The notes below the pieces were generated by a model, which made no database searches, was not told where the DNA came from, and was given only the letters and a program-made list of their open reading frames with translations. The position numbers and the translations under genes are program-made. Below are positions 4,893-56,634 of a stretch of DNA of 64,000 nt, one piece after another. Origin of the DNA: an uncultured Candidatus Saccharibacteria bacterium (GTDB taxonomy: Bacteria; Patescibacteriota; Saccharimonadia; Saccharimonadales; UBA4665); NCBI GenBank assembly GCA_963743435.1, contig CAVUPG010000004.1, positions 176,238-240,237 of the forward strand, in the 5' to 3' direction. The first letter of the stretch is position 1, and each line of letters begins with the position of its first letter.

Positions 4893-5948
4893 ATGGACAG
4901 CAAGGAGCAATCACTACGAACCGAGTACGATGCACTGCAGCAAAAGCTACAGGACCCTTCTGTGTACTCTGATACTGGGTACCCTAAACTTGCCAAGCGA
5001 CAAGCATATCTAGAGCACGTCGTGGAGCTATTTGATGAAAGCCATGATCTGGAAAACAAGCTTGCCCAGGCGAAAACTGTTGCCGCCGAAGGTGGTGAAC
5101 TCGGTGAGTTGGCGAACGCCGAGCTGGAAGAGCTTGAGGAGCAGCGAATCAGCAACCAAGAAGCTCTAGAGCTTGCTCTGACACCCAAGGACCCAAACGA
5201 TGAAAAGGATGTGATCATCGAAATACGCGCCGGAGCCGGAGGCGACGAGGCATCATTATTTGCCGCAGAGCTGTACCGGATGTATATCCGCTGGGGCGAA
5301 ACGCATGGCTACAAAACGGAGCTTGTCAGTGAAAGCCCGAGTGAAGTTGGAGGGTTCAAAGAAATCATCTTTACCATGCACGGTGATGACATGTACAAGC
5401 AGCTCAAATTTGAGGCTGGTGTACACCGGGTACAGCGCGTACCCTCAACTGAAAGTCAGGGTCGTATCCACACTTCTACGGTCACCGTCGCAATTTTGCC
5501 TGAAGCCGAAGAAACTGATGTCGAAATCAACCCGAACGACCTTCGCATCGATGTTTTCCGTGCCGGCGGCCATGGTGGCCAGAGCGTCAACACTACTGAC
5601 TCTGCTGTTCGTATCACGCACATACCGACTGGGATAGTCGTAGCCAACCAGGATGAAAAGTCTCAGATCAAAAATAAAGCAAAGGCTCTGAGCGTGCTAC
5701 GCTCTCGCCTACTCCAAATGAAGATCGAGGATGAGCAAAAAGAGCTCAGCGACGCCCGCAAGAAACTCATTGGCTCAGGCGACCGGAGCGAAAAGATTCG
5801 TACGTATAACTTCCCACAGGATCGCATCACCGATCACCGTATCAGCTATAGTCGCAGCAACATCCCAGCTGCACTCAGTGGCGACATAGATGACCTTATC
5901 GAAAAACTTGCAGAGTACGACCGTAATCTTATCAACGCGGGAGACTAA
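4893..5948 (+). CDS. prfA: peptide chain release factor 1
   Basis: 351-aa ORF with the GGQ motif ([10 protein letters not shown]) and an RF1-type PST tripeptide ([14 protein letters not shown]). Confidence 0.95.
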
Positions 5949-11883: not shown

Positions 11884-12744
11884 TTAGCTATCAAGTGCCT
11901 CGAGTAGTTTTGTCAGCTCTTCGTCTGTTGTAAACGCCAACTCTATGCGTCCACCCTTTGCCATCCGATGAATCCGTACCTGCGTGCCGTATCGTTTACT
12001 GAGCTGTTTTGTCTCGGGCGTCTCATTGGCCATGCGTTTTTGTGCTGACTTCGTCTCAGTATGCCCGTCCTTAACAGAGTTTACATACCGCTCTGCTTGA
12101 CGCACCGACCATCCGTTCTTCGTGATTAATGCAAGCAACGCTGCTTGCTGAGTAGGCTTGTCTTTCAGTGCAAGTATCTGGCGTGCATGTCCCTCGCTTA
12201 TCACCCCATCTGACAAAGCTCGCTTACTTTCGTCAGGCAATTGTAGCAGTCGTACTGCATTACTCACCGCTGCGACCGATTTACCCAGACGCTGCGCGAT
12301 GGCGTTATAGTTCAGGTTGAATTGTTGGTGCAAGCGCTCTATTGAGACTGCTTGCTCTAGAGGGCTCAAATCTACACGCTGCACATTCTCAACGAGCGCC
12401 AACTCTAGGCGTTCGAGGTCTTTGCTTGATCTCACCACCGCCGGTACGGTGTTAAGACCCGCCAACTGCGATGCACGCCAGCGTCTTTCTCCGGCGATTA
12501 TCACGTACTGTTTACCGTGCGGGCTCACCACGAGTGGCTGCAATATTCCGTAGCGCTTTATGCTACCGGCGAGTTCTTGCAACGCTGCCTGGTCAAAGAC
12601 AGTTCGAGGCTGATCTGGATTCGGGGCCACATCTGCAATGCGTAACTGTTCGATACGTTCGCCCTTCTCTATCAGCACCCCGGTATCAAAGTTCTCCGGT
12701 ATGAGTGAACCAAGCCCTCTGCCTAGCCCTGACTTTGTACTCAT
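11884..12744 (-). CDS. parB: chromosome partitioning protein ParB/Spo0J
   Basis: 286-aa ORF with GLGRGLGSLI, the GERRWRAS box and an HTH, downstream of parA. Confidence 0.95.
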   Translation of the reverse strand: MSTKSGLGRGLGSLIPENFDTGVLIEKGERIEQLRIADVAPNPDQPRTVFDQAALQELAGSIKRYGILQPLVVSPHGKQYVIIAGERRWRASQLAGLNTVPAVVRSSKDLERLELALVENVQRVDLSPLEQAVSIERLHQQFNLNYNAIAQRLGKSVAAVSNAVRLLQLPDESKRALSDGVISEGHARQILALKDKPTQQAALLALITKNGWSVRQAERYVNSVKDGHTETKSAQKRMANETPETKQLSKRYGTQVRIHRMAKGGRIELAFTTDEELTKLLEALDS

Positions 12745-12820: not shown

Positions 12821-13583
12821 TCAGAGGCCGGCACGCTGCACCACTTCCTGTGCAAGCGCCTTGTACGATCGAGCGCCCTTGCTCCATTTGTCATGTTCGA
12901 ATATGGTCTTGCCATGACTTGGCGCCTCTGCCAATCGGATGTTACGTGGTATTACTGTCTTAAATACACTATCGCCAAAATGCTGGGTGACCTCCGTTTG
13001 TACCTGCTCACTCAACACCGTTCGCTTCGTATACATCGTCAGCAGCACCCCGAAAATCGTTAAGCGAGGGTTAAGCCCCTGGCGTACCAGTTGTATTGTT
13101 TGCATGAGCTGACTGAGCCCCTCGAGTGCGAAGTACTCGGCCTGGACAGGTATCAGCACCCCGTTTGCTAGCTGTAAGTGCATTGACCGTCAATAGGCCC
13201 AGAGCTGGCGGGCAGTCAATGATAATAACGTCGGCTTGCACATTCATGAGCAAATCGGTCAGCTTTGTCTCTCTACTATCAACTGTTACTAGATCAACCT
13301 CTGCCTGTGCCAGCGCTCCGTTTGTCGGCAAAATGTAGAGGTTTTTGATGCGTGTAGCTAATAATACGTCCCCGACGGCTTGTGTACCAATTAGTGCATC
13401 ATAGAGTGTTAGCTCAAGACCCTCTTTCTCTATCCCAAGACTACTGGTGGCATTCCCTTGTGGATCCAGATCAACCAGGACAACACGACGCTTGGCGGAT
13501 GCAAGTTGTGCAGCCAAATTCACCGCGGTCGTCGTTTTACCAACTCCGCCCTTTTGATTTGTCACAGCCAGAACGAATGCCAT
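12821..13583 (-). CDS. parA: chromosome partitioning ATPase ParA/Soj; one frame break
   Basis: The N-terminal ORF 13071..13583 has the deviant Walker A NQKGGVGKTT. The C-terminal ORF 12821..13183 continues with ANGVLIPVQAEYFALEGLSQL. A 1-nt indel lies near 13160-13175 (AAA/GGGG runs). A strong SD (GGAGGAGG) lies upstream. Confidence 0.9.
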
Positions 13584-14050
13584 CGGTTATTACCCTCTTT
13601 CCTCCTCCAATCCTACCAGATATATCGCTAGTGGTAAACAAATTTATACCCAACCATATAGTACTAGTTCTATAGTACGCGCCCTATCGGCTACATTATG
13701 TGCGCATTCTATACTACTATGCCTAGTAAATTAACAGATGGAGAGATGCAATGAATAACCAAAGTAATTGCAAGTGGTTTGGGTGAGCTTTATTCACCCA
13801 ATTTGGAGCATGAATCAGTGTCATGCCGTATTGTGCGACATTCGCCTACCTCTAGGTGGCTATGATAACCAACCTTTGATCTTTGTATATTGCCCGTTTA
13901 GTAGATAAATCATTGACGAATGGTACACATGGTTGTTTTGCGATACAAAATGAAGCAATATTGCCTATTTTTGGCCCTAGCTGCTTCATATTGAACCTTT
14001 GCCATGTGCATAGACGATGAGAGCCGTACAATTTGACACAAAAAGAAAAA

Positions 14051-14078
14051 GCAGGGTTTGCGAGAGTCCCTGCTTTTT
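14051..14078. terminator. bidirectional intrinsic terminator-like hairpin
   Basis: gcaggg (14051-14056) / ccctgc (14068-14073) with an 11-nt loop. A-run on the 5' side and T-run on the 3' side, so both strands end in U-tracts. Confidence 0.55.
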
Positions 14079-14250
14079 CAATTTTTTTGAGTCGTTTTTG
14101 TTTTTGTTTGTTTGGTTTTTCGATTTTGACCAGCTGGTGCTACGAGAGCAAGAGCCTTGTGGCAAAATCTAAGCTTTAGTATGCGCTAACGCTAAAAATA
14201 ATGCAATAGTTTTTGTGCACATTTTTTACTCATGTGTGTATTTTCACCCC

Positions 14251-14261
14251 AGTTATCCACA
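14251..14261 (-). promoter_or_regulatory. conserved 11-mer TGTGGATAACT (DnaA-box core TTATCCACA), copy 1, orphan
   Basis: Exact plus-strand AGTTATCCACA in the AT-rich spacer between the propeller gene and parA. Confidence 0.5.
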
Positions 14262-25121: not shown

Positions 25122-27534
25122 TCACCCACTTGGTACCGTTGTACTGGAGGAGTTGGTGGGTACTGGTGTCGAAGTAGAGCATGCCCTCGGTTGGAGAGCC
25201 AGGGCGTGAGGCAGTGGTGCCACCGGTAAAGGAGATGGTTTGGTTAGCGGCGACGACCGCACCAGCGTTTATGTTGACACTGTCATTGAGATTAATGGTC
25301 CCTGCCCCGTCGAGGACGATGTTACCACTCGTGGTGGTGGTAAGGTTGAGGTCACCACTGGTGACGTTGAGGGCTGCACTGAGGTTGGTGGAGGCGATGT
25401 TGCTGAGGCTTGTGTTAGCACCGCCTGCGCCACCACAACTTGTCCAACCTAGCACACCACTGCCGGATGTGTCTGACAGACAGTCACCAGAGCTACCGAG
25501 TGCTGTCGGGAGAGTCAACGCGTAGCTGGTGCTGGTGGCACCGGATTGGATGCTGACGGTGTTGGTATTAGCTGTATTATTGAAGACGATCTTGCCATTG
25601 ACGGCATTGGTGCCGCCATTGTAGTTACCGAGCTGAACTTCCCCATTGGTGGTATCAGCGTTGAATAGGTCGACGCCGTTGGCGTCTTGAATTGTGAAGC
25701 TATTGGTACTGCCATAATCGGTTGTCACGATTACGCCACCATTCGCACCTGCTCCAATTGGAGCCCCGCCCGATAATATTAAGTTACCTCCATTTGCATC
25801 ATTTGTTGGGGATAAGGATATAATCGAGTAATATTGAGGCCCGGTCGGGCTAGAGGTGAACGTCTGTGAGAGCGTACCGTTCGACCCACTGACGCTGTAG
25901 CCAATCATACCCCCGCTGCCGGTTGAGGCATTGTTCTGGGCTAAAACAGTACCTGTAGTGATACCCACAGTGTCATTATTTTGTCGAACTGCACCAGCGT
26001 ATAGGACGAGATCTCCTGAGCTTACATTTACCGGTCCAACGACCGTAGAAGCCGAGCCAGTAAACGATTGGTAGCCTATATGGTCATTCACAGCACCGAC
26101 ATCGTGCACCCCTATAATACCGACCTCCCCATAACCTGCGCCAGTAAACGTCACGGTCACGGAACCCCCTATGTCGCCCAGTGTCACCGTCTTGTAGTAC
26201 AGCGCACCACACATGCCTGCGCCACAAGTGTACTCAGGCCGAGTCCAACCCGCGGGAGTATTAATACCATTGTATTGCTCGACAGACATGACAAGCATAT
26301 CACCGACCGATAGACCAGTCGGGTAGCTCGCCACCATACTCGCTACGTTATTTACATGGGTAAGCGTGTGACCAACTATAGTAGGCGATCCTGTAGCAGT
26401 TGCATTACCGGCTCTGACGCTCAGGCTGCTCCCAGTGCCGCTGGTCGCATCCGCTACTGAAATCGTGTGCGGTGTATCACCGCCGAAAGTGACATCGCCA
26501 GCTGCATTTACATCATCATTGAGATTAATGGTCCCTGCCCCGTCGAGGACGATGTTACCACTCGTGGTGGTGGTAAGGTTGAGGTCACCACTGGTGACGT
26601 TGAGGGCGGCGCTGAGGTTGGTGCTAGCGATGTTGCTGAGGGAGGTGTTGGCTCCTGTAGAACCGCTACAGTTTGCGAGCGTGACGAGACACAGGGTGTC
26701 ACTCGTGCCAGCGAGGTCTGGGAGACTAACGGTACCATTACCCACCGTCTGTGCTGCAATACTCAGGCTCACCTTGTACGCATTGGTGCTGTTGAACAAG
26801 TCAATTGTTCCCGTGGTGGTGCTGGCGGTACCGACAGCCAAAGAGGAGCCGAAGATACCTTTGCCGGAGATGTTGAGGTTACCGGTCTGAGCAGTACCCG
26901 GTGTGCTGCCTTGGAGCTGGATGAAGCCAGCATTCGCTTCGTTCTCGGTGAGGAGATTGTAGCTGCCGGCTGCACCTTGATCACGGATCTGGAACGTCTG
27001 GTCACCGACGGTTGGAGCCTGTAGCGTGAGCGTCGAGCTCAGTGCACCACTCGTCGTGATGAGCTGACTCGCTGTCTTCGCATTGAACGCATACGGTACG
27101 GCGGTGAGGGAGAGGCGTGGGGACATCTCACCGTCCCATGAGTTGGAGGTGCCAGTACCACCGATGTCCATGGTGAGGTAGAGCTGCTGGTCCCATGGGA
27201 TGGTGGATGGGAAGCTGGTGATGGCACCGAGGTCAACGCTGAGGTAGCCGTTGGCAACTCTGACTCGGTTGTCAGGAGAGCCACCGTTGTAGTCACGGGT
27301 TTCAGTCCAGAGGAGGGTGCCACCAGTGGAGGCGTCGTAGAGCTTGAAGCGGACGTTGTAGTTGCCGTCTGGGGCGATCTGGCCGGCTCCCTTCTGGAGG
27401 CGGGCTTGGAAGTTCAGGGTGTCGTTGGTGGCAGCATACGCAGGCGTAGACACGCGCGTAAGGAAAAACAGGGGTAGGATGAGCAAGAACAAGACCGAGA
27501 TAGCGCGGGCCATGGTGAGGATACGACCAGACAT
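25096..27534 (-). CDS. giant fibre protein A, proximal part (signal peptide, conserved N-terminal domain, unique globular insert, stalk module)
   Basis: Start chosen at MSGRILTMARAISVLFLLILPLFFLTRVSTPAYA|ATND (GAGGGG SD 8 nt upstream). It ends artificially at WVSDRSPPPR*, where paralogues continue WVSDRSTATKIVAMGPTT... Confidence 0.8.
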   Translation of the reverse strand: MSGRILTMARAISVLFLLILPLFFLTRVSTPAYAATNDTLNFQARLQKGAGQIAPDGNYNVRFKLYDASTGGTLLWTETRDYNGGSPDNRVRVANGYLSVDLGAITSFPSTIPWDQQLYLTMDIGGTGTSNSWDGEMSPRLSLTAVPYAFNAKTASQLITTSGALSSTLTLQAPTVGDQTFQIRDQGAAGSYNLLTENEANAGFIQLQGSTPGTAQTGNLNISGKGIFGSSLAVGTASTTTGTIDLFNSTNAYKVSLSIAAQTVGNGTVSLPDLAGTSDTLCLVTLANCSGSTGANTSLSNIASTNLSAALNVTSGDLNLTTTTSGNIVLDGAGTINLNDDVNAAGDVTFGGDTPHTISVADATSGTGSSLSVRAGNATATGSPTIVGHTLTHVNNVASMVASYPTGLSVGDMLVMSVEQYNGINTPAGWTRPEYTCGAGMCGALYYKTVTLGDIGGSVTVTFTGAGYGEVGIIGVHDVGAVNDHIGYQSFTGSASTVVGPVNVSSGDLVLYAGAVRQNNDTVGITTGTVLAQNNASTGSGGMIGYSVSGSNGTLSQTFTSSPTGPQYYSIISLSPTNDANGGNLILSGGAPIGAGANGGVIVTTDYGSTNSFTIQDANGVDLFNADTTNGEVQLGNYNGGTNAVNGKIVFNNTANTNTVSIQSGATSTSYALTLPTALGSSGDCLSDTSGSGVLGWTSCGGAGGANTSLSNIASTNLSAALNVTSGDLNLTTTTSGNIVLDGAGTINLNDSVNINAGAVVAANQTISFTGGTTASRPGSPTEGMLYFDTSTHQLLQYNGTKWVSDRSPPPR

Positions 27535-27685
27535 GACGAGACCCCTCAAGTCGGGGTGACTGGGGGTATGACGAGGCGGTATGGGCGTATTGCCTGAGAG
27601 ACCTGGCATGTGTTTTTGGTTTGTTTGGTTTGGTTTTAAAGTTTTGGAAAGTTTGTGTGTGTATCGGTTTTGGTTTTGGTCGATA
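27071..27685 (-). repeat. shared 5' module, copy A (proximal leader + signal peptide + N-terminal domain)
   Basis: Near-identical by eye to 41664-42275. The coding part also matches 55331-55749. Confidence 0.8.
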
Positions 27686-27927
27686 CTGAACTCTATTGTG
27701 CGTGAAAATACACCCAGAGGGTACCCCTACAAAAGTACTTTTTGTGTGCAGCTATGTCGCAGCAAAATCAGAGTAAATTCGATACATTTTTGTAGTTTTT
27801 GTGACTACGTAAATTGTGTTAGCCGCTGAATCTAACAAGCTTTTTATTTAATTATTTAATCGTTCTGTTGTAAATATTCCGTAGTATCAAATACAATATA
27901 GGCTCATTTTTGGATAATTTTATTATG

Positions 27928-27938
27928 AGTTATCCACA
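27928..27938 (-). promoter_or_regulatory. conserved 11-mer TGTGGATAACT, copy 2, 394 nt upstream of the fibre A start
   Basis: Exact AGTTATCCACA on the plus strand. An inverted partner TGGATAA at 27911-27917 gives TGGATAA-N12-TTATCCA. Confidence 0.55.
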
Positions 27939-32880: not shown

Positions 32881-33176
32881 TGCCGTGCCGAAATAACCAT
32901 TGCGCCAGGTGATGGCAGCGCTACCAAGATCGTCGGTGTTGGTGGTGTCAGATATGAGGCTGGTGTTGATAGCGACGCTCGCGAGGTTGTGAAAGCGGTA
33001 TTAGCACCACCCGCACCACCACAGGTCGTCCAGCCGAGCACGCCTGTACCGGTGGTGTCGTAGAGACACTGGCCTGAGCTACCAAGACCGGTCGGGAGGG
33101 TGAGATTGTAGCTAGCGCTCGTGGCGCCAGACTGGATACCGACGGTGTTTACGTTGGAAGCAATTATTGAAGACAA
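32853..33176 (-). CDS. fibre C fragment (stalk unit [14 protein letters not shown]...[10 protein letters not shown])
   Basis: 107-aa ORF. It is continuous in sequence logic with 33112..33696 upstream and 29716..32880 downstream, but in another frame. Confidence 0.6.
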
Positions 33177-33696
33177 TCTTGCCGTTGACTGGATTGGTGC
33201 CGCCGTTGTAGTTGCCGAGCTCTATTTGGCCTGAGGTGGTATTGGCATTGAAGACGTTTACACCATTGCCGTTTTGGATGGATACTGCTGCAGATGAAGC
33301 GGCTTGTTTGAAGCGGATGTCGGTGCCACCGGCGGTCATAGCCTGACCGGCATAGATAGTGTTAGTGCCGGCGTCACTGATGCTTGTCGCCCCCGTACCA
33401 GAGAAGGTGTTGCCGGAGAGGTATGTGCCGCTCGTACCAGTCGCATTTACCTGGATGGCGTAGCCTGTACCGGCTGTATCTGTGATGGTGTTACCGTGCA
33501 CTACAACATTGGCGGCGTATTGGTCGATGAGGATAGAGCTGGACGCTCCAGTGCCACCGTTGTTGTACAGGGTGTTATCACTAACGTTGGTGTCGTCAGA
33601 ATGGTAGGCCGATGAGCCGTTAACCCGGATACCCTCTGCGGTGTTGCTGCTGGCGGTGTTGCTGGTGATGAGCGCACGGTAGCGAGCCGTAGACAT
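33112..33696 (-). CDS. fibre C fragment (end of beta-helix domain 2 + stalk unit)
   Basis: Contains NTITDTAGTGYAIQVNATGTSGTYLSGNTFSGTGATSISDAGTNTIYAGQAMTAGGTDIRFKQ, paralogous to fibre D at about 52450-52700. Confidence 0.65.
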   Translation of the reverse strand: MSTARYRALITSNTASSNTAEGIRVNGSSAYHSDDTNVSDNTLYNNGGTGASSSILIDQYAANVVVHGNTITDTAGTGYAIQVNATGTSGTYLSGNTFSGTGATSISDAGTNTIYAGQAMTAGGTDIRFKQAASSAAVSIQNGNGVNVFNANTTSGQIELGNYNGGTNPVNGKIVFNNCFQRKHRRYPVWRHER

Positions 33697-33776
33697 AGAA
33701 GCCTTACCCGGTGTTCGAGACGGCCTTGTTACCAGTCACGACCACATCGTCCGCGTAGGCGATGTCGAAGCCACCA

Positions 33777-34304
33777 CTACCGTTGCCCGTCGCGGTGTTG
33801 CCTGTGACGCGCATGCCGACATCGGAGTCGATGTAGAAACCGTAGCTGTAGGCGTTGTTGCTGCGATGTTGTCAGACACGACATTGCGAGCGCCGTTAAT
33901 GTAGAAACCGGTGCCGCCAGTGTTGGTAGCAGTGTTATCACTGACAACATTGTCGGTACCGAATATCTCCATACCATCACCACCTGCAAGGTTGCTGATA
34001 GTGTTACCTGTAATTGTGTTAAAGGAGAGCCGGAATAGAGATTAATACCGCCACCGCCTGAGTTAATGATGGTGTTGCCTGCAATGTAGTTGTGATCTCC
34101 GGCAGTAATGTCGATCGAATCATATGGAATACGTGTAATTTGCAGGCGAGTCACAGAAGCGCCCGCACGAGAGGCAGATTCGCTGCCCATGTTGGTCAAG
34201 TTAATACCCGTGCCCGTAGCACTGTTGCGATCAGTTCGCCCATCGAGTTTAAGGTCACGAATCGTAACACCTGTTCCAGTGGTCTGATCGGTGTTCACAA
34301 TCAT
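33777..34304 (-). CDS. fibre C fragment (beta-helix domain 2, N-terminal turns)
   Basis: Contains TIRDLKLDGRTDRNSATGTGINLTNMGSESASRAGASVTRLQITR, paralogous to fibre D at about 53250-53420. The reading frame decays towards the 3' end. Confidence 0.6.
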   Translation of the reverse strand: MIVNTDQTTGTGVTIRDLKLDGRTDRNSATGTGINLTNMGSESASRAGASVTRLQITRIPYDSIDITAGDHNYIAGNTIINSGGGGINLYSGSPLTQLQVTLSATLQVVMVWRYSVPTMLSVITLLPTLAAPVSTLTALAMSCLTTSQQQRLQLRFLHRLRCRHARHRQHRDGQR

Positions 34305-34903
34305 GGTAATCCCCGTGCCATGGTGCCGAAGTTACCGAGCTGGATGATGGTACTGTTACCGCTACCAGCGAGTGTGACGTTGTTCGGGATGGAGATGCTG
34401 CCGTCTATGGTGTAGGTGCCTTCGGTGAGGTAGACGGTGCCACCACCAGCTGCAGCGGCAGCAGTTAGGGCATTGTTTATTTCTATTTGGTCACCGTCGA
34501 GGGTACCGATGCCACTGCCAGAGCTGTCTTCGCCATTGGCGACGTACTGCGCACCATCCTTGGCTGCTTGTGAGCTGTTGCTGGCGGCGACGATGAAGGT
34601 AGCAGCTTTGCTATCGCTCTGCCATTTGCCATTGCTGTAGGTGAGGAGTTGTTTGGTGGTGGTGTCGAAGTACATAGTACCCTCAGATGGTGAGCCTGGA
34701 CGGTTGGCGGTGGGAGCCCCAACAAAGCGGATTGTCTGCGCGGCAGCTACCGTCGCACCGGCGTTAATGTTAACTGAGTCATTCAGGTTTATTGATCCCG
34801 CGCCATCCAGCACGATATTGCCGGAAGTGGTTGTGGTGAGGTTGAGATCCCCGTTAGTGACATTGAGGGCAGCACTGAGGTTAGTGCTAGAGATGTTGCT
34901 CAA
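34301..34903 (-). CDS. fibre C fragment (stalk module + start of beta-helix domain 2)
   Basis: Contains ...NRPGSPSEGTMYFDTTTKQLLTYSNGKWQSDSKAATFIVAAS...GGGTVYLTEGTYTIDGSISIPNNVTLAGSG, highly similar to fibre D. Confidence 0.7.
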   Translation of the reverse strand: MSNISSTNLSAALNVTNGDLNLTTTTSGNIVLDGAGSINLNDSVNINAGATVAAAQTIRFVGAPTANRPGSPSEGTMYFDTTTKQLLTYSNGKWQSDSKAATFIVAASNSSQAAKDGAQYVANGEDSSGSGIGTLDGDQIEINNALTAAAAAGGGTVYLTEGTYTIDGSISIPNNVTLAGSGNSTIIQLGNFGTMARGLP

Positions 34904-38000: not shown

Positions 38001-39582
38001 TGACGCCGTTTTGGAAGGTCTTGAGACCACCAATGGTTTGAGCGGCACTCGTCAATACACCGCCATTGGTGCCGTTTGCTGCCGTCAGGTTCAGTGTGTT
38101 GCCAGTGATGGTTGCACCGTTGGCGTTGGCTGTGCCAGAGATGGCTCCGACGGTGGTGGCGCCACTCCCTGCTCCGTCAATGTTCGCTGGAGCCCAAGCC
38201 GTGCCGTTCCATATGTAGGCCTGACTCTTCGATATTGGAATCGTGACGCCATACATCGTGAAGCTATTGCTTCCACCGACATTATTTATATAGACAAGTC
38301 GCCCGCCAGTCGCAGTTGTCGGGGTCGGCAGCGTAAATGTCAAACCACCCGCAGTAGCGGTTATATTGAAAGTCGTATATACGTCTACCGTAGAAGCAGC
38401 CGCACCCACCGCCCCTGAACTACCAAGACTCAGTGGTTGTGCACTGAGTAATGTGTAGCCAGTGTTTGTTAGACCAGCGGTCGTGACGGTCGTAAAGTTC
38501 GGGGTGGCAGACACCGCAAGCGTCAGGCTGCCGCCAAGCGAAACCGTACCACCACCCGTAATGTTGCTGCCATTATTGATTGTGATGCTGCTGTTCACGA
38601 GATTAGCATTCGCTACGGTAGCGTTTGCGATATTACCGCCGGTAATAGTGGCGCTCGCGATTTGGGTTGTCGTTATCGTGGCGTTGGCAATGTTTGATGC
38701 AGTGATGGTCGTAGCCGCGATGTTGCTGCCCGTTACCGTCGAGGTAGCCAGGTCAGTACCTGTGACCGTGCCGTCGGATATTGACGTACTGTTGACTGCT
38801 CCAGTCGCTATCTTGCCATTTGTAATAGCACTATTCGCGATAGTGAATGTATTGGTGCTACCAGAGACACTATTTGTCAGATCACCTGCACTCGTGCCAT
38901 TCACCCAGTTGGTGCCGTTATAGACGAGCATTTGGTTCGTTGCAAGACCCGAGACGCTGACATTTGCGCCGCCGATACTACCGGCTGGGCATGTACCCCA
39001 GCTCGGCGCCGCAGCGGTCGTAGCGAGTAGACACTGACCGGTTGAGCCGGCTGCAGTCGAAGCAATCTTGCTGCCATCGTAGTAGTTCACCCCATTGGTC
39101 GTGTAGGTCGTGTTGTTGGTGCCACCATTAGCAATCGGCAGCGTGGCGACTGTGCCCAATACGCCCCCTGCGGTGTTAGTGACGATACCAGCCGTGCTGA
39201 GGCCCGATACCGAAATCGTGCCGGCGAGTGTCGTTGTCACACCCGTTTTGCCAATGGTGATAGCATTGGCGTTACTCGTCCCAATGGACAAAGCGCCGGC
39301 GCTCACTGTGTCAAAGGCTGGCCCATACACCGCCGTGCCAAAGTAGCCATTGCGCCAGGTGATACCCGAGCTACCGAGGTCATCAGTGTTGGTTGTGTCA
39401 GAGATGAGGCTGGTGTTAATAGCGACGCTGGCGAGGTTATCGAGGGCGTGTGGCTCCGCCACCACCACCGCCGCCACAGCTGGTGAAGCCGAGGACACCA
39501 GTGCCAGTCGTGTCGACGAGACAGTCGCCGGAGCTCCCGAGCCCAGTCGGAAGGGTGAGGTTGTAGCTGGTGCTAGTCGCAC
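35002..39582 (-). CDS. fibre C fragment (1526 aa): long Gly/Thr/Ser/Asn/Ala fibre with two copies of the tail-fibre-like module
   Basis: Largest intact piece. Its first ~45 codons are out-of-frame read-through. The 3' break sits at a G4 run (ACGGGGCAAGC, about 35010-35020), after which SSLGKLTAVAAGSCLVSNG... continues in another frame. Confidence 0.75.
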   Translation of the reverse strand: MRLAPATTSPFRLGSGAPATVSSTRLALVSSASPAVAAVVVAEPHALDNLASVAINTSLISDTTNTDDLGSSGITWRNGYFGTAVYGPAFDTVSAGALSIGTSNANAITIGKTGVTTTLAGTISVSGLSTAGIVTNTAGGVLGTVATLPIANGGTNNTTYTTNGVNYYDGSKIASTAAGSTGQCLLATTAAAPSWGTCPAGSIGGANVSVSGLATNQMLVYNGTNWVNGTSAGDLTNSVSGSTNTFTIANSAITNGKIATGAVNSTSISDGTVTGTDLATSTVTGSNIAATTITASNIANATITTTQIASATITGGNIANATVANANLVNSSITINNGSNITGGGTVSLGGSLTLAVSATPNFTTVTTAGLTNTGYTLLSAQPLSLGSSGAVGAAASTVDVYTTFNITATAGGLTFTLPTPTTATGGRLVYINNVGGSNSFTMYGVTIPISKSQAYIWNGTAWAPANIDGAGSGATTVGAISGTANANGATITGNTLNLTAANGTNGGVLTSAAQTIGGLKTFQNGVTSSAALTVSAGGASITGGLNNNNGGITSAGAISGGTAITSSGTITFSGLSTAGIVTNTAGGVLGTTSSVPVANGGTGATTSQGAINNLSQLTTNGDLLYNNGTNSTRLARGTNGQCLTSTTTSIQWGSCGLSAEADTLATVTGRGATTTTASSFQGGATIRTLTVDTSTATDDLIAVAVTAGGAGRFTGTITNADLTANRTWTLPNVSGTVITTGNLNSITSTGTITSGTWQGTAIGVGYGGTGLTSYTAGDLLYASGTSTLSKLTAVAAGSCLVSNGVGAAPIWSSCSAAAGGANTSLSNLTATSINQNLVADANNTRDIGTSSTTWRAGYFGTSVNTPLLQSNTSLTITPSGTLTAGSTSQVFVLQGTGGSTITANGGGGTTTIGFSGAPVGNVSYNFDRSVAAGSYTICTTVGNCVGSGGGVSTSGGTTNRIAKFSASQAITDSSISDDGSTVTINGSSTLAVQGASVTVGTASLQGSLVLQSGGGYTTTLKAGASSSNLTFLFPTADGSSLQCLKTNGSGQLGFYNCNNGSGSGGAVTLNDAYTAGNTITTTDSRDVAFTFADTTTDASMVFNLQCTTCSASGGRFAVQNGGTDVFTVNPNSGGVLTKLNSTVALAVQNTSGLGQLTVDTTNKIVQVGNAVTDANATLLILDSYNGGSDPAGYNGAMYYNTSTNKLRCYENGAWTDCITTSGPGGANTSLSNLTSTSVNQTLTANASNSLDIGTSGTSWRSGYFGTSIITPTIDTNSAVALNIGTTNATSINLNQNTVVAAGKTVTITGLSTAGIVTNTAGGVLGTTSSVPVANGGTGATTSQGAINNLSQLTTNGDLLYNNGTNSTRLARGTNGQCLTSTTTSIQWGSCGLSAEADTLATVTGRGATTTTASSFQGGATIRTLTVDTSTATDDLIAVAVAAGGASRFTGTITNADLTANRTWTLPNVSGTVITTGNLNSITCTGTITSGTWQGTAIGAAYGGTGLSSYTTGDLLYATGQAPSAN
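35170..35742 (-). repeat. about 0.57-kb intragenic repeat, copy 2
   Basis: See 30677-31249. Confidence 0.85.
37373..37870 (-). repeat. about 0.5-kb intragenic repeat, copy 3
   Basis: See 30677-31249. Homology ends at ...gatgccagcggtggagaggcc. Confidence 0.85.
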
Positions 39583-40045
39583 CAGATTGGAGCCCTACCG
39601 TATTGGCATTAGTACTATTATTAAAGCTTATTTTGCCGTTGACTGCGTTGGTCCCACCATTGTAGTTGCCGAACTGGATTTCCCCATTGGTGGTATCTGC
39701 GTTGAAGAGGTTAACCCCGTTCGCATTTTGGATAGTAAATGCAGATGTACTGCTCGTCTGGCTGTAACGAATATCCTTGCCGTTTGCGCTCATCGCTTGA
39801 CCATTGTAGATAGTCGTGGAGCTGAGATTTAGGCTACTGGAACCTGTACCAGAGAATATGTTGCCAAACACGATTGTATTGATGACATTCCCGCCAGTAC
39901 CCTTTATCGCGTAGCCACTGCCGGCGGTATCAGTGATCCGGTTATTGGAAATCTGGTTGCCTGTTGCGCCGCCAGTACCCCTAAATTCGATAGCACTCCA
40001 GCTGCTAGTACCACCGTTGTCGTACAAGTTATTGCCTGACACCAA
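39437..40045 (-). CDS. fibre C fragment (end of beta-helix domain 1 + stalk unit)
   Basis: Contains NRITDTAGSGYAIKG...GQAMSANGKDIRYSQ...[35 protein letters not shown], then a frame break inside or next to the Gly-codon run at about 39455-39480. Confidence 0.65.
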   Translation of the reverse strand: MVSGNNLYDNGGTSSWSAIEFRGTGGATGNQISNNRITDTAGSGYAIKGTGGNVINTIVFGNIFSGTGSSSLNLSSTTIYNGQAMSANGKDIRYSQTSSTSAFTIQNANGVNLFNADTTNGEIQFGNYNGGTNAVNGKISFNNSTNANTVGLQSGATSTSYNLTLPTGLGSSGDCLVDTTGTGVLGFTSCGGGGGGGATRPR

Positions 40046-42275: not shown

Positions 42276-42512
42276 GCTCTCATTTTCCTCCTGATGCACT
42301 CGGTACGGCAAGGTGTTAGAGGCAAGAAACTTGCTCAAGTAATTGACATGGTGTATAAACTTATTTACAACAATTATTGTTGTGCTAGTTGCTACATAAC
42401 TGCTCGGAACTGATACCGCCGCTCGTATTGCTCGATGTGTAGCAGTCTCAAGTTAGAATTTTTTGTAGTAATTTATACATTTTATGATTTCCATACCACT
42501 TTGTTATTACCT

Positions 42513-42523
42513 AGTTATCCACA
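42513..42523 (-). promoter_or_regulatory. conserved 11-mer TGTGGATAACT, copy 3, 385 nt upstream of the fibre C start
   Basis: Exact AGTTATCCACA. It shares the 16-mer AGTTATCCACAGGCAA with copy 4, but the flanks are otherwise unrelated. Confidence 0.55.
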
Positions 42524-45284: not shown

Positions 45285-45523
45285 ACTTGAGGTAGCGAAC
45301 TGACTGATACTGCCGTCACTGACGTTAATCTTGGCATAGAGGAGGTCATTGAGTGACCCGCCCTCAGAGACGTTAAGCCCGCGAGCGCATAGAGATAGCC
45401 GTTGTAGCCAAAGGCAGACCCACGCCGACGGACCGGGTTCAATTCGACCGGTACATCATCGCCATTGCCTTTGATGCCATACGGGCCCCGCGTCGCTGGC
45501 AGATATCCACGCGCTGCCACCAT
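45281..45523 (-). CDS. Kelch-like protein fragment
   Basis: Contains YNGYLYALAG. Short piece between frame breaks. Confidence 0.45.
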   Translation of the reverse strand: MVAARGYLPATRGPYGIKGNGDDVPVELNPVRRRGSAFGYNGYLYALAGLTSLRAGHSMTSSMPRLTSVTAVSVSSLPQV

Positions 45524-46052
45524 CTGCCGCCACGATGTTGTTAGAATTATCTATCTTGGCGTACAGCACCTCGCCACGCTCACCCTCGTTCGGGCTCTGG
45601 CCGCCGATGAGATAGATGTAGTTGGCATAGACCGTACCGGCTGCTACCCCGAGACCCTGCGTGCCAGCGGTTGTTTCTGAGTCAATCTGGAGTTGTCCGC
45701 TCGTCGTACAGGTGCTACCCGATGTTTCTAGCGATCCGTCAGTCTTAATATAGCACTTATACACTTCTGTGTAGAGCGTACCTGTGCAGTCGAGGCCGTT
45801 ATCTGCCGCCGTGACACCGCTACAGCCACCGAGCACATAGAGATTCCCTGGGTATGTACCAGCCGATGACGGATTTGCCCGGGTAAACGCGTACTGGTAT
45901 CCCTTAGCGTTACCGAGCCCTACATTGCCAAATGTCTGAGTGGACCACGATCCCCAGGTACCATCGCTATTAAAGGTCGACCCGCATAACCGTATCTTGC
46001 CACTGCGTACCTGTCGTTCCACCGATGATGTACATGGTGTTGTTAAACACAC
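45456..46052 (-). CDS. Kelch-like protein fragment
   Basis: Contains GNLYVLGGCSGVTAADNGLDC and ANYIYLIGGQ. Confidence 0.6.
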   Translation of the reverse strand: MCLTTPCTSSVERQVRSGKIRLCGSTFNSDGTWGSWSTQTFGNVGLGNAKGYQYAFTRANPSSAGTYPGNLYVLGGCSGVTAADNGLDCTGTLYTEVYKCYIKTDGSLETSGSTCTTSGQLQIDSETTAGTQGLGVAAGTVYANYIYLIGGQSPNEGERGEVLYAKIDNSNNIVAADGGSAWISASDAGPVWHQRQWR

Positions 46053-46299
46053 TATACCCGAATGCGGAAATTTTGTCTGGCATCGATCCGCTGCCGTTTA
46101 TCGCGCACCAACTACCTACGAAACTGCCTGAGCAGCTCGAAATTCGTGTGATGTGTCCTGCGGAATCGATAGCAGCATATGCGATGTTGTCGGTCGACTT
46201 CCCAGAGTTACCTGTGAAACACACACTATTATTCCCAACTGCCGTGCAGCCCCCGATGTAGTAAATGTAGCCATTGTTGATTATGGCACCCCCGGACAT
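45970..46299 (-). CDS. Kelch-like protein fragment
   Basis: Contains NNGYIYYIGGCTAVGNNSVC and NNTMYIIGGT. Confidence 0.55.
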   Translation of the reverse strand: MSGGAIINNGYIYYIGGCTAVGNNSVCFTGNSGKSTDNIAYAAIDSAGHITRISSCSGSFVGSWCAINGSGSMPDKISAFGYSVFNNTMYIIGGTTGTQWQDTVMRVDL

Positions 46300-46345
46300 A
46301 CCCCCCGCCTGGCCGTTACCATCCCCCTGTGGTGGCAGGTCGCAG

Positions 46346-47218
46346 TTATAGTAGCCCGTACCCTGACACGCAGGGTGACGTCCCGTTTGAAACAGATGTA
46401 CTCACCGTGCTCACATCACCGTCTGGGTTAATCTCACCAATGTCTGTTGTTGTTTTTACGCTCGTGCAGGCCCCTGTTGACGTGTTTTGGGCACTACACC
46501 CACCGATGCCGTAGAGCGCGTTACGCCACACCATGAGCCCATAGCCCATACGGCTATTGGTGATGTTGGTAACGGTGGTCCAGTCTGTGATGCTACCGTC
46601 CGCATTGATGCTCGCAAGTTGGACATCATTGGCGATGCTCGTACAGTAGCCACTGCCATTCACCGTCGAACAACCACCGGCCACATAGATGTACCCACCC
46701 CATATGGTCGCGAATTTACCCCCAAGTGCTGCCCGAGCCGTCGTAGTACCTGTATTACCTATTGGGTTACCCGTTTGCCAGGAGTTGATAGTGCCGTCAG
46801 TGTTTATTTTGGTATACAGTACCGCACTCTGCGTTGTCGTCCCACTGATACCCCCGATGACGTATAAGAAGTCGTTATAGGTTTGCAGACTGTGACTCAT
46901 TATTGCTGAGGACAGTTGGGACATGCCTGTTGTCGTCCAGTTTGTCAGCTTGCCGGTTGGGTTAATGTCTGCCTTCTGTACGGTTGTAGAGCCGCCAGTC
47001 CATCCAGATGTTGAGCCGCCTACAACATACATACGGTTGTTATACGCGACCGCACCCAGGAACGCACGGTTTGAGCTCAGCGCCGTGTCGCTGTACCAGT
47101 AGACCCAGTTGTTTTTGTTAGTGTCAGTTGGGTGCCAGAGCTGGGGTTCGCCATTGGCGCCCAGCTTCGCAACATACACCGTACTCGTGGCGCTCCCCCC
47201 GCTATTGAGACCCACCAA
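46346..47218 (-). CDS. Kelch-like protein fragment (290 aa)
   Basis: Contains NNRMYVVGG, NDFLYVIGG, GGYIYVAGGCSTVNGSGYC and RNALYGIGGCSAQNTSTGAC. Confidence 0.65.
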   Translation of the reverse strand: MVGLNSGGSATSTVYVAKLGANGEPQLWHPTDTNKNNWVYWYSDTALSSNRAFLGAVAYNNRMYVVGGSTSGWTGGSTTVQKADINPTGKLTNWTTTGMSQLSSAIMSHSLQTYNDFLYVIGGISGTTTQSAVLYTKINTDGTINSWQTGNPIGNTGTTTARAALGGKFATIWGGYIYVAGGCSTVNGSGYCTSIANDVQLASINADGSITDWTTVTNITNSRMGYGLMVWRNALYGIGGCSAQNTSTGACTSVKTTTDIGEINPDGDVSTVSTSVSNGTSPCVSGYGLL

Positions 47219-47271
47219 ACAGATACAGATAGCCGTTATACGCCACTAGGGAGGCGCCTTGACGTACCTGG

Positions 47272-48456
47272 CTACTTGGGCAGGTTATATGCAGAGTTGG
47301 TGCACCAACTGGCACAGGCACCCGCACCGGGGTTTGGCTGCTCTATCAGCCCCGTTGAGTTGTTGATGTGTGCCCAATACACGTCGCCTTTGACCGACGA
47401 GCCGTCGTTACCACCGACGATGTAGATATACCCACCAGCGACCGCCGTGGATTGATTCCACCGCGCAGACGGCAATGCAGTCATGCCAGTTGTCACCCAG
47501 CTATCGAAACGCCCACCGGTTGTCTTCCCCTTTTGGATGAGCTCATTGTCGATGTCGAAGTCGATGTTACTCTCGTTGTTACCGCGCATGAGCTTTGCTG
47601 CCGTCTCGATGTAGACCGAAGGGTCAATCGTGAGTGGGTAGCTGGCGTCCTTGAGCCCTTCAGCGTAAATGGTCAGCACATTGTCCTTGAGGCCATACCA
47701 GGCTCTTGCGTTGCTGACTTGCTTCCCTGACTCTTTGATGAACGGTGCCGGGATGCTAAACAACAGGTTTGTCTTGGGTGCGTTGGCACGAGCTTTCTCG
47801 AGCAATTTCGCATCTGCATCGGAGCCAGTCGTCACATTGCCCAGGAGATTACTGTCTACACCGTAAATACCGATAGCGCCGCTCGGCTCCATGTGGGCTT
47901 CAAGCCCATCATCCAGAGACAGCTCATAGGAGAACTCTTGCTTGTCACCCTGATAATGGTTCAGGATGATATCCTCCTTGAGCTTGATGGCCTGGGCAGT
48001 AAACACTTGCTGGGCGTCGCGGCCCGTTACGGGATAGATGACACGGTTTTGGTTTGTCTGCGGAGCCTTAAGGTTAAACTTCGGCTTGAAGCCCATTGTG
48101 ACCTGGCTGACGGGATCTGTTATGGTCACGCCCTTCTCGGGGTCCTGGCTGAAGCTAGCACTAAATTTTGCTCTCGCCGAGTCTCCAGACATCGTTGTGC
48201 TCGGCGTGTAGTCTTTGTTGAATTCGATTGTTTGGGCCTTGGTATCTACCTTCAGGCTGTCGGCCAGGGTAGGCACGGCATCCGGCAGGAGTGCAGCGGC
48301 CTGAGGGGTAAGTGCATAGGCATTTGCCTGCTGCCGCCAAATAGACGTATCGATAAAAATCGTACTCAACATCAGAAGTGCCATGAGGCCCCATCCTAGT
48401 CGCGTTAGTACCGGATGTTTGCGCTTAGATGGCCGATACTGTTGTGCTAGGCGCAA
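47272..48456 (-). CDS. Kelch-like protein, N-terminal fragment (basic tail, TM anchor, non-repeat domain, first blade)
   Basis: TM helix LGWGLMALLMLSTIFI and the first blade GGYIYIVGGN. The start is uncertain: TTG at 48456, or ATG at 48665 (MDNRQKPTY...) joined through another frame break. Confidence 0.6.
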   Translation of the reverse strand: MRLAQQYRPSKRKHPVLTRLGWGLMALLMLSTIFIDTSIWRQQANAYALTPQAAALLPDAVPTLADSLKVDTKAQTIEFNKDYTPSTTMSGDSARAKFSASFSQDPEKGVTITDPVSQVTMGFKPKFNLKAPQTNQNRVIYPVTGRDAQQVFTAQAIKLKEDIILNHYQGDKQEFSYELSLDDGLEAHMEPSGAIGIYGVDSNLLGNVTTGSDADAKLLEKARANAPKTNLLFSIPAPFIKESGKQVSNARAWYGLKDNVLTIYAEGLKDASYPLTIDPSVYIETAAKLMRGNNESNIDFDIDNELIQKGKTTGGRFDSWVTTGMTALPSARWNQSTAVAGGYIYIVGGNDGSSVKGDVYWAHINNSTGLIEQPNPGAGACASWCTNSAYNLPK

Positions 48457-55794: not shown

Positions 55795-56190
55795 GACAAT
55801 ACCCCTTAGTCGAGAGAGACTAGGGGTGCGTTGCAATATGGCAAGCGCCGTACGTTTTGGTTTGAACATTTGGTTTAAGGTGTTTGTCTTGGTTTCGCTT
55901 TTTGACTTGCGAGAGACCAAAAATGTTTGTTTGGATTTGTCACGTTTTCGTTTGAATTTTTGTTTCGGACAATTCCTGCACTCAGTATCGCTAGATACGA
56001 CAAGATATACAACCGAAAATGTATGCAAAAATTTGTACCCAATTTGTGCATAAATACCTCTAGAATACGTTGTGCTGTGTGCAACGTTTCATATACACCC
56101 CTGTTTTCTGCACTCGTTTAGGCTACAAAAAGTGATGTAGTGACACCAAATTTCGTAGCTATATTTGCAACGATATTTATATTGCATGTG

Positions 56191-56201
56191 AGTTATCCAC
56201 A
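56191..56201 (-). promoter_or_regulatory. conserved 11-mer TGTGGATAACT, copy 4, 397 nt upstream of the fibre D start
   Basis: Exact AGTTATCCACA immediately downstream of the rplU terminator. Confidence 0.55.
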
Positions 56202-56563: not shown

Positions 56564-56634
56564 CTGGGCTTCCTAACCTTACTTTAGTACCGAGACATGA
56601 TACCAATTTCACCCCTGTTTGTAAAGGGGTTGTG

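Follow-up and report, generated by a model that had tools for sequence, protein, structure and literature searches.

A conserved, putatively regulatory DnaA-box sequence upstream of giant fibre genes in Saccharibacteria

INTRODUCTION

The closest known kinds of system to the one described here are the DnaA-regulated promoters of Escherichia coli, Bacillus subtilis, and Caulobacter crescentus and the DnaA-box elements that work together with DNA-bending proteins. In C. crescentus, DnaA is a cell cycle transcription factor (gcrA, ftsZ, and podJ), and the initiator links replication status to cell surface and developmental genes, which is where the likeness to the present case lies. The Caulobacter box is different, however (TGATCCACA), its sites lie near the promoter, and we know of no phased-palindrome architecture in that organism. 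The Fis sites of rrnB P1 likewise place several proteins on one face of the DNA far upstream of a strong sigma-70 promoter, although the proteins and sequences are other ones and the region described here reaches further, to about -240.

In E. coli, DnaA acts as a transcription factor outside oriC (ChIP-seq regulon; PMC11317965), and the promoters that it regulates (nrdAB, dnaA, mioC, purH, and polA; PMC11317965) carry, as do those described here, TTATCCACA with the flanks agTTATCCACAg upstream of a sigma-70 promoter. Those E. coli sites are double boxes 2 to 3 bp apart and near the promoter, and the genes that they serve have nucleotide and replication functions, whereas here a single box lies about 190 to 200 nt from the -35 element, phase-locked to two palindromes, and the targets are genes for giant secreted proteins. 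The E. coli elements datA, DARS2, and oriC (with IHF and Fis) similarly join a high-affinity box to phased, AT-rich, probably bent DNA and to sites for a second protein, but they hold several boxes and control DnaA activity or unwinding rather than a downstream promoter, and the palindromes described here do not match the IHF consensus.

What is new in the putative control region reported here is the combination of a single distant box, a rigid multi-element layout, and giant secreted-protein targets in a candidate-phylum episymbiont. Saccharibacteria live attached to host bacteria, and gene regulation in them, as in candidate-phyla bacteria generally, is to our knowledge almost wholly uncharted. 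A search of the literature on Saccharibacteria DnaA boxes and on this motif found no relevant description.

RESULTS

Box copies in the fibre cluster

In the window (the whole stretch of DNA analyzed, 64,000 nt from an uncultured Candidatus Saccharibacteria bacterium), about 42 kb is taken up by giant genes, whose products are beta-helix, Kelch, and DUF5122-propeller proteins. The names given to homologues assign the organism to Saccharibacteria (Saccharimonadales). It also carries housekeeping genes (RRF, S2, RF1, PrmC, HtrA, LytR, and signal peptidase), parB, rplU, and genes for a glutamine amidotransferase, IleRS, and a class II ribonucleotide reductase. From 7 kb to the right end of the window, almost every gene is on the minus strand. 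The 11-mer AGTTATCCACA is present in exactly four exact copies, at 14251, 27928, 42513, and 56191 and on the plus strand each time, and since the genes lie on the minus strand, it reads TGTGGATAACT in the direction of transcription. The genes flanking each copy have the same orientation on both sides, and those downstream of copies 2, 3, and 4 have a near-identical N-terminal module in common. The positions are as follows.

56191..56201, minus strand: box copy 4, TGTGGATAACT, upstream of fibre D and about 10 nt past the T-tract of the rplU terminator
42513..42523, minus strand: box copy 3, upstream of fibre C
27928..27938, minus strand: box copy 2, upstream of fibre A
27909-27917: inverted weak box, TTATCCAAA, beside copy 2
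14251..14261, minus strand: box copy 1 (the "orphan"), after the last giant gene (1515 aa) and 668 nt short of parA

An earlier sequence-only reading of this DNA had listed the same four co-oriented copies, and our recount agrees with it: the chance expectation was 0 (no match in 100 dinucleotide-preserving shuffles), a search of the window allowing one mismatch gave no extra copies, and the 9-mer TTATCCACA was confined in the window to the four 11-mer copies. The distances that it gave from copies 2 to 4 to the ATGs at 27534, 42128, and 55794 were correct when measured again (394, 385, and 397 nt), and both the extension shared by copies 3 and 4 (AGTTATCCACAGGCAA) and the inverted partner of copy 2, 12 nt off, were found. 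Its statement that the flanks are not homologous needs correction, as each fibre copy also has two palindromes and a sigma-70-like promoter farther downstream, which keep conserved spacings across genomes.

The megabase contigs of two relatives keep the order IleRS, rplU, large gene, parA, parB, with a box after rplU in both; in relatives L078 and L080, this box occupies the position equivalent to that of copy 4. Around ParB homologues on megabase contigs, the conserved order is IleRS, rplU, fibre, parAB, S26 peptidase, LytR. The conserved IleRS-rplU-large gene-parA-parB order thus makes the fibre cluster a fixed genomic slot.

Several features of this slot deserve mention in their own right. 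Between rplU and parAB (13584-56260 in the window), relatives L078, L080, and L011 have one gene of 880 to 1033 aa, and in the window genome the slot holds about 42 kb and three promoter modules, which suggests that the gene and its control region were amplified locally and together. Short ORFs that encode beta-helix or Kelch fragments occur in runs between the giant genes (33112-34903, 39437-40045, and 45456-48456) and look like broken pieces of more giant genes, left either as pseudogenes or by repeat assembly errors. The window parA (12821-13583) is split into overlapping ORFs (13071-13583 and 12821-13183) by either a frameshift or a sequencing error; the ParA proteins of relatives are intact, at 254 to 255 aa. 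GC skew flips from negative to positive at about 18000, where the giant genes start and the cumulative skew has its minimum. Gene orientation is unchanged at this point, and the skew is therefore a matter of giant-gene composition and not of a replication origin. An oriC at the box copies themselves was also rejected (single boxes about 14 kb apart, no dnaA in the window, and co-oriented flanking genes), as was one in the 850-nt spacer next to parA (one good box and co-oriented flanking genes).

Conservation of the box in relatives

Alignment of the N-terminal module with 25 homologues, followed by a scan of one genome per species, yielded 77 loci from many Saccharibacteria assemblies, 72 of them with enough upstream sequence. 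In 68 of these 72 loci, a box precedes the fibre gene homologue and lies on its strand, so the motif does recur before orthologous giant genes, a point that the sequence-only reading had singled out for checking. Nearly all of the boxes lie 407 to 791 nt 5' of the conserved FQARL codons. The position of the motif is indeed kept independently of the duplicated 5' coding module, as had been suggested from the window copies. The exact TGTGGATAA occurred 53 times on the gene strand of the related loci versus once on the other strand, and loci lacking the exact form mostly have TGTGGAAAA in the same place (box variants: TGTGGATAA, about 51; TGTGGAAAA, about 21; TGTGGACAA, 3; TGTGGATAG, 1).

The family consensus is yTGTGGA(T/A/c)AAvT, which reads on the opposite strand as the DnaA box, TT(A/T/g)TCCACA. 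Only DnaA-box position 3 varies (A in about 51, T in about 21, and G in 3), save for one site with a change at position 1. Outside the classical 9-mer, the consensus also keeps a C/T at -1 and, two bases past the 9-mer, a strongly conserved T (57/66); otherwise the flanking DNA on either side of the box is unconserved across loci.

The sequence-only reading had asked whether the motif is frequent and lies inside genes, and this was not the case in the approximately 858 kb of window and loci. Besides fibre upstream regions, the extended motif is limited there to orphan sites and three others, namely, a fibre-type upstream region (L070), the gene for a 395-aa secreted protein (L059), and parA (L080). 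At the last of these (L080, 9053), an exact TGTGGATAA stands 124 nt 5' of the parA start codon, and in some genomes the partition operon may itself be under direct control of the box.

The box is absent from L006, L010 (TGTAGAAAA), and L011 (AAAGGATAA), and L005 has only TGTCGATAA. In L011 (about 5545-5575), the closest relative of fibre D, AAAGGATAA replaces the box and the distance to the first downstream palindrome (see below) is cut to about 27 nt, with sequences like the second palindrome and the promoter kept; this locus is a putative natural loss-of-box variant.

Architecture of the control region

In the direction of the gene, the layout is box, palindrome 1, palindrome 2, sigma-70-type promoter, A/C-rich leader, and start codon (spacings are counted from the end of the 9-mer). 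The palindromes are imperfect copies of GTWGT-N7/8-ACWAC, with the consensus AAATAGTTGTAATTATAACAACGATT, and there are two in each fibre promoter region. The CWAC of palindrome 1 follows the box by either 33 to 36 nt (n = 32) or 44 to 46 nt (n = 17), two spacing classes that lie one helical turn apart. Palindrome 2 follows palindrome 1 by about 86 nt (85 to 89 nt in 35/36), and the -35 element follows palindrome 2 by about 70 nt (69 to 72 nt in 31/37). The promoter is of the type cTTGnnn-N17/18-(G/C)ATA(C/A)T or GAAAAT and lies about 190 to 203 nt downstream of the box; it resembles those of rplU (TTTACA-N17-TATCAT) and of the orphan (TTGCAT-N17-CATACT). A match at or above the scoring threshold was present in the expected region in 58 of 66 cases, a generous count given that the -10 weights were tuned on these sequences.

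The three fibre copies of the window all fit this scheme. Copies 2 and 3 have the 45/46-nt spacing, and copy 4 has that of 34 nt. Their elements are listed here, fibre D first.

56155..56171, minus strand: palindrome 1 of copy 4, GTTGCaaatataGCTAC; CTAC 34 nt past the 9-mer, weight-matrix score 21.1
56096-56105: AACAGGGGTG, 5' of palindrome 2 of copy 4
56069..56085, minus strand: palindrome 2 of copy 4, GTTGCacacagcaCAAC; CAAC at +120, assigned by eye and equal to the family value of +120
55984..56012, minus strand: fibre D sigma-70-like promoter, TTGTAT-N17-GATACT, homologous to CTTGTCA-N18-CATACT of L007
42465..42479, minus strand: palindrome 1 of copy 3, TGTAtaaattaCTAC; CTAC at +46
42379..42395, minus strand: palindrome 2 of copy 3, GTAGCaactagcaCAAC; CAAC at +132
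42282..42311, minus strand: fibre C sigma-70-like promoter, TTGCCG-N18-GAAAAT
27881..27896, minus strand: palindrome 1 of copy 2, TTGTAtttgataCTAC; CTAC at +45, assigned by eye, with a score below the matrix threshold
27792..27809, minus strand: palindrome 2 of copy 2, CGTAGtcacaaaaaCTAC; CTAC at +134
27695..27732, minus strand: fibre A core promoter, probable but weak, TTGTAG-N16-TATTTT or with CACAAT as the -10 element, the assignment being ambiguous

The -35 element of fibre D is about 10 nt nearer the box than is the norm for the family. The 10-mer AACAGGGGTG is found both at 56096-56105, in fibre D, and at 56610-56619, in the spacer of the rplU promoter (TTTACA-N17-TATCAT), and related motifs, AACAG(A/G)GG, lie 5' of palindrome 2 in many loci.

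The earlier suggestion that the 11-mer forms part of an unusual promoter can be set aside, as a conventional promoter stands at a fixed place about 190 to 203 nt downstream in most loci; the inconsistent -10-like hexamers that accompanied the suggestion were an artefact of searching too near the box. Close to the box, a simple scan for promoters did no better than in shuffled sequence, and the box as a sigma-70 hexamer was rejected in view of the conserved -35/-10 pair downstream. On this sequence evidence, the box lies outside the promoter. It is a single, asymmetric, strand-specific putative protein site that forms the upstream edge of a control region of about 230 bp, and its conservation supports a role as a regulatory site of the fibre genes. 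Across 240 aligned nucleotides of the box region, AT content has a period of 10 to 11.5 nt, which accounts for 16% of spectral power versus 3% in column shuffles (p<0.0002). Such periodicity is what phased DNA bending or wrapping would produce.

The two half-sites of the palindromes vary independently, without compensatory changes (Fisher p = 1.0), and the palindromes therefore look like protein sites rather than hairpins, probably those of a dimeric or DNA-bending protein. Other identities were tried and dropped: RNA or DNA hairpins, for which covariation was missing; -10 elements or transcription starts, for which the best hexamers end in C and not in T and a canonical promoter lies downstream; and E. 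coli Ter, dif, parS, and IHF sites, to which the likeness is partial and was treated as coincidence.

The orphan copy and a candidate small RNA

Box copy 1 has sites homologous to it at 12414 in L006 and at about 5693 in L005. The region downstream of it in the window contains the following features.

14178..14206, minus strand: orphan sigma-70-like promoter, TTGCAT-N17-CATACT, its -35 element starting 46 nt past box copy 1
14038..14171, minus strand: candidate small RNA of about 133 nt, with a 5' stem, an A/C-rich single strand, and a terminator
14051-14073, minus strand: intrinsic terminator of the small RNA

The predicted fold of the candidate small RNA has an energy of -34.5 kcal/mol (z = -5.6), and an equivalent layout, with a stem AGATTTTG...CAAAATC, an A/C-rich linker, and a terminator, is present in L005 (about 5780-5890) and L006 (about 12500-12610). 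The candidate, about 105 to 133 nt in length, is thus conserved in three genomes, and it adjoins parAB. Rfam returned no match at or above threshold for the candidate small RNA or for a structured leader or riboswitch. The A/C-rich stretch is like that of the fibre leaders, and the small RNA may mimic or compete with them.

Orphan boxes precede the -35 element by 46 nt (window and L006) or by 25 to 26 nt (L042 and L056), again two positions separated by whole helical turns, in this case two. The orphan promoters of L042 and L056 have a back-to-back weak box, and L042 has a third box within the promoter spacer, from which it would repress. Box pairs or triplets are restricted to some orphan promoters (L005, L042, and L056), apart from the weak partner at copy 2. 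Taken together, the fibre and orphan layouts indicate that the box serves at least two promoter layouts, co-oriented with transcription and in helical register.

Leader and start codons

The A/C-rich leader between promoter and start codon is 55 to 110 nt long, and in many loci an ATG follows it directly, without a Shine-Dalgarno sequence. The fibre genes of the window have upstream in-frame ATGs at 27609, 42203, and 55869 (320, 311, and 323 nt past the 9-mer), that of fibre D being the following.

55867..55869, minus strand: upstream in-frame ATG of fibre D (MFKPKRT...), alternative to ATG 55794

The sequence ATGTTCAAAC.AAAACGTAC at this ATG is conserved in L007 and L009. Because these upstream ATGs follow the leader, as in relatives, the true start codon is ambiguous, and the Shine-Dalgarno-supported starts proposed earlier, correct though their distances from the box are, have rivals in frame upstream. 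Each fibre gene accordingly has two candidate in-frame starts 75 nt apart (27609/27534, 42203/42128, and 55869/55794), the upstream of which lacks a Shine-Dalgarno sequence. At the downstream ATG, a GAGGGG/AAGGGG Shine-Dalgarno sequence forms part of the 3' arm of a hairpin (such as CCCCTAGTC...GACTAAGGGG, about 55806-55835), which could be a translational control element.

DISCUSSION

The reading that we favor is that DnaA binds the box and so regulates the fibre genes, and we put its probability at about 0.5. The box agrees at all nine positions with the universal high-affinity DnaA box. Position 3 is also where published boxes of high affinity differ, with TTATCCACA in many phyla and TT(G/C)TCCACA in actinomycetes (PMC4285127), and the substitutions found here match the published variants TT(A/T)T.CACA and TT(G/C)TCCACA; TTTTCCACA is a further form discussed in the DnaA-box literature. 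The extended form agTTATCCACAg has the same flanks as the majority of sites that DnaA occupies in vivo in E. coli, such as oriC R4, datA, and purH (PMC11317965). An asymmetric, single 9- to 12-mer also fits a monomer-binding protein such as DnaA, through its domain IV, and candidate-phyla bacteria do have dnaA (bioRxiv 10.1101/2025.01.22.634366). The extra boxes in mixed orientation at orphan promoters and the box before parA in one relative are further points in favor of DnaA. Functionally, parA is tied to replication control.

Other observations weigh against DnaA. A tblastn search with an approximate B. subtilis DnaA query found no dnaA in the window or the 77 loci, and no DnaA family member was present among the called genes within 10 kb in the ParB neighborhoods of two genomes (L078-L080). 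In E. coli, nearly all in vivo DnaA sites are box pairs, 2 to 3 bp apart, and just 13 of 32 single consensus boxes are DnaA bound (PMC11317965). Near the fibre boxes there is no conserved second box, including weaker ones at a fixed offset, and the fibre boxes are thus neither paired nor clustered. A site about 230 nt 5' of the transcription start is, moreover, unusual among DnaA-regulated promoters. The absence of the box from L006, L010, and L011, the last of which retains palindrome- and promoter-like sequences, also counts against this reading. We know of no DnaA requirement for the T two bases past the 9-mer, and the conservation of this base could point to a different protein.

The alternative that survives best, though we regard it as doubtful, is that a dedicated regulator other than DnaA recognizes yTGTGGAWAAvT and through it governs the promoters of the fibre genes, the small RNA, and parAB, the likeness to a DnaA box being coincidental or competitive. 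The T at +10 and the C/T at -1 would widen the site past the classical 9-mer, there is one box per promoter where E. coli DnaA needs pairs in vivo, and within 858 kb the motif is limited to one gene family and its neighbors. Coincidence would nevertheless have to account for nine positions that all equal the universal high-affinity DnaA box, for a variable position that is, at all but one site, the variable position of known DnaA boxes, and for flanks equal to those of DnaA-bound sites in E. coli. Nor do the fibre loci have a linked regulator or transcription factor gene, the small intervening ORFs being beta-helix or Kelch fragments, and canonical DnaA would be expected to bind the box sequence anyway.

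It is unlikely that the box is instead a boundary or roadblock, at which a tightly bound protein (DnaA or other), placed where the upstream transcription unit ends, shields the fibre control region from read-through but does not itself regulate the promoter. Such a role would suit the position of the box 8 to 12 nt past the T-tract of the upstream terminator in many loci, as well as the strong terminator hairpin that directly follows the box in about eight loci. It has no need, however, of phasing by one helical turn or of fixed spacing to elements 35 to 200 nt downstream, and the orphan boxes, at 25 or 46 nt from the -35 element, are in typical activator positions.

Two further readings are disfavored by the spacing data and the single-box arrangement. 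That the box is the -35-like element of an ECF-type promoter, its ...AAC pairing with the CGT/GTWG of palindrome 1 as the -10 element, is very improbable: GGA(T/A)AAC does resemble AAC-type -35 elements, the left half of palindrome 1 (cGTWG) resembles ECF -10 elements, and a (T)AAC lies 17 to 19 nt 5' of palindrome 2, but the spacing from AAC to GTWG is 20 or 31 nt, with classes a full helical turn apart, where about 16 to 17 nt is needed, and a good sigma-70 promoter occupies a conserved downstream position. There is equally little to expect from the reading in which the boxes titrate or reactivate DnaA, as datA, DARS, and the B. subtilis DnaA-box clusters do, and so serve replication control only and have no fibre role; perfect high-affinity boxes outside oriC, several per genome and adjoining AT-rich, probably bent DNA, would be in keeping with it, but known titration sites are clusters of boxes and those here are single, and strict gene co-orientation and fixed, phased spacing to the promoter would be left unexplained.

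For the reading of the box as a DnaA-bound regulatory site, the following mechanism may be proposed. DnaA would bind the box through domain IV. A second protein, probably a dimeric or DNA-bending one, would occupy both palindromes, and the two would act together from the same face of the helix. The resulting curved or wrapped upstream complex, on about 230 bp of phased AT-rich DNA, would set the use of the fibre promoter by RNA polymerase, so that expression of the giant surface proteins would follow the level or state of DnaA, that is, replication status. The small RNA would come under the same control, and so would parAB in some genomes; these promoters carry the box too. In this scheme we infer DnaA as the binder, as we do the choice between activation and repression and the identity of the palindrome binder. 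A positive or architectural role is favored, on the basis of distance and of the activator-like positions of the orphan boxes, which have centers near -65 and -86. The full proposal, in which a DnaA-anchored, wrapped, helically phased complex switches the fibre genes and, via related promoters, the small RNA and parAB, and thus ties the display of the attachment apparatus and segregation to replication, is tentative.

In sum, a complete control region comprising box, two palindromes, promoter, and leader has been defined across dozens of Saccharibacteria genomes, and its most conserved element is a perfect DnaA box. Even if another protein proves to be the binder, the motif and its spacing rules should be useful as a marker of the regulon and as an aid to promoter engineering. 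If DnaA does bind, the fibre promoters would be a case in which DnaA works, together with a partner protein, from one remote site, and the proposed mechanism, if true, would describe a novel type of DnaA regulon, in which single boxes about 230 bp upstream act with a palindrome-binding partner. The giant surface proteins are prime candidates for host attachment, and binding by DnaA would also connect replication control directly with the surface architecture of an episymbiont.
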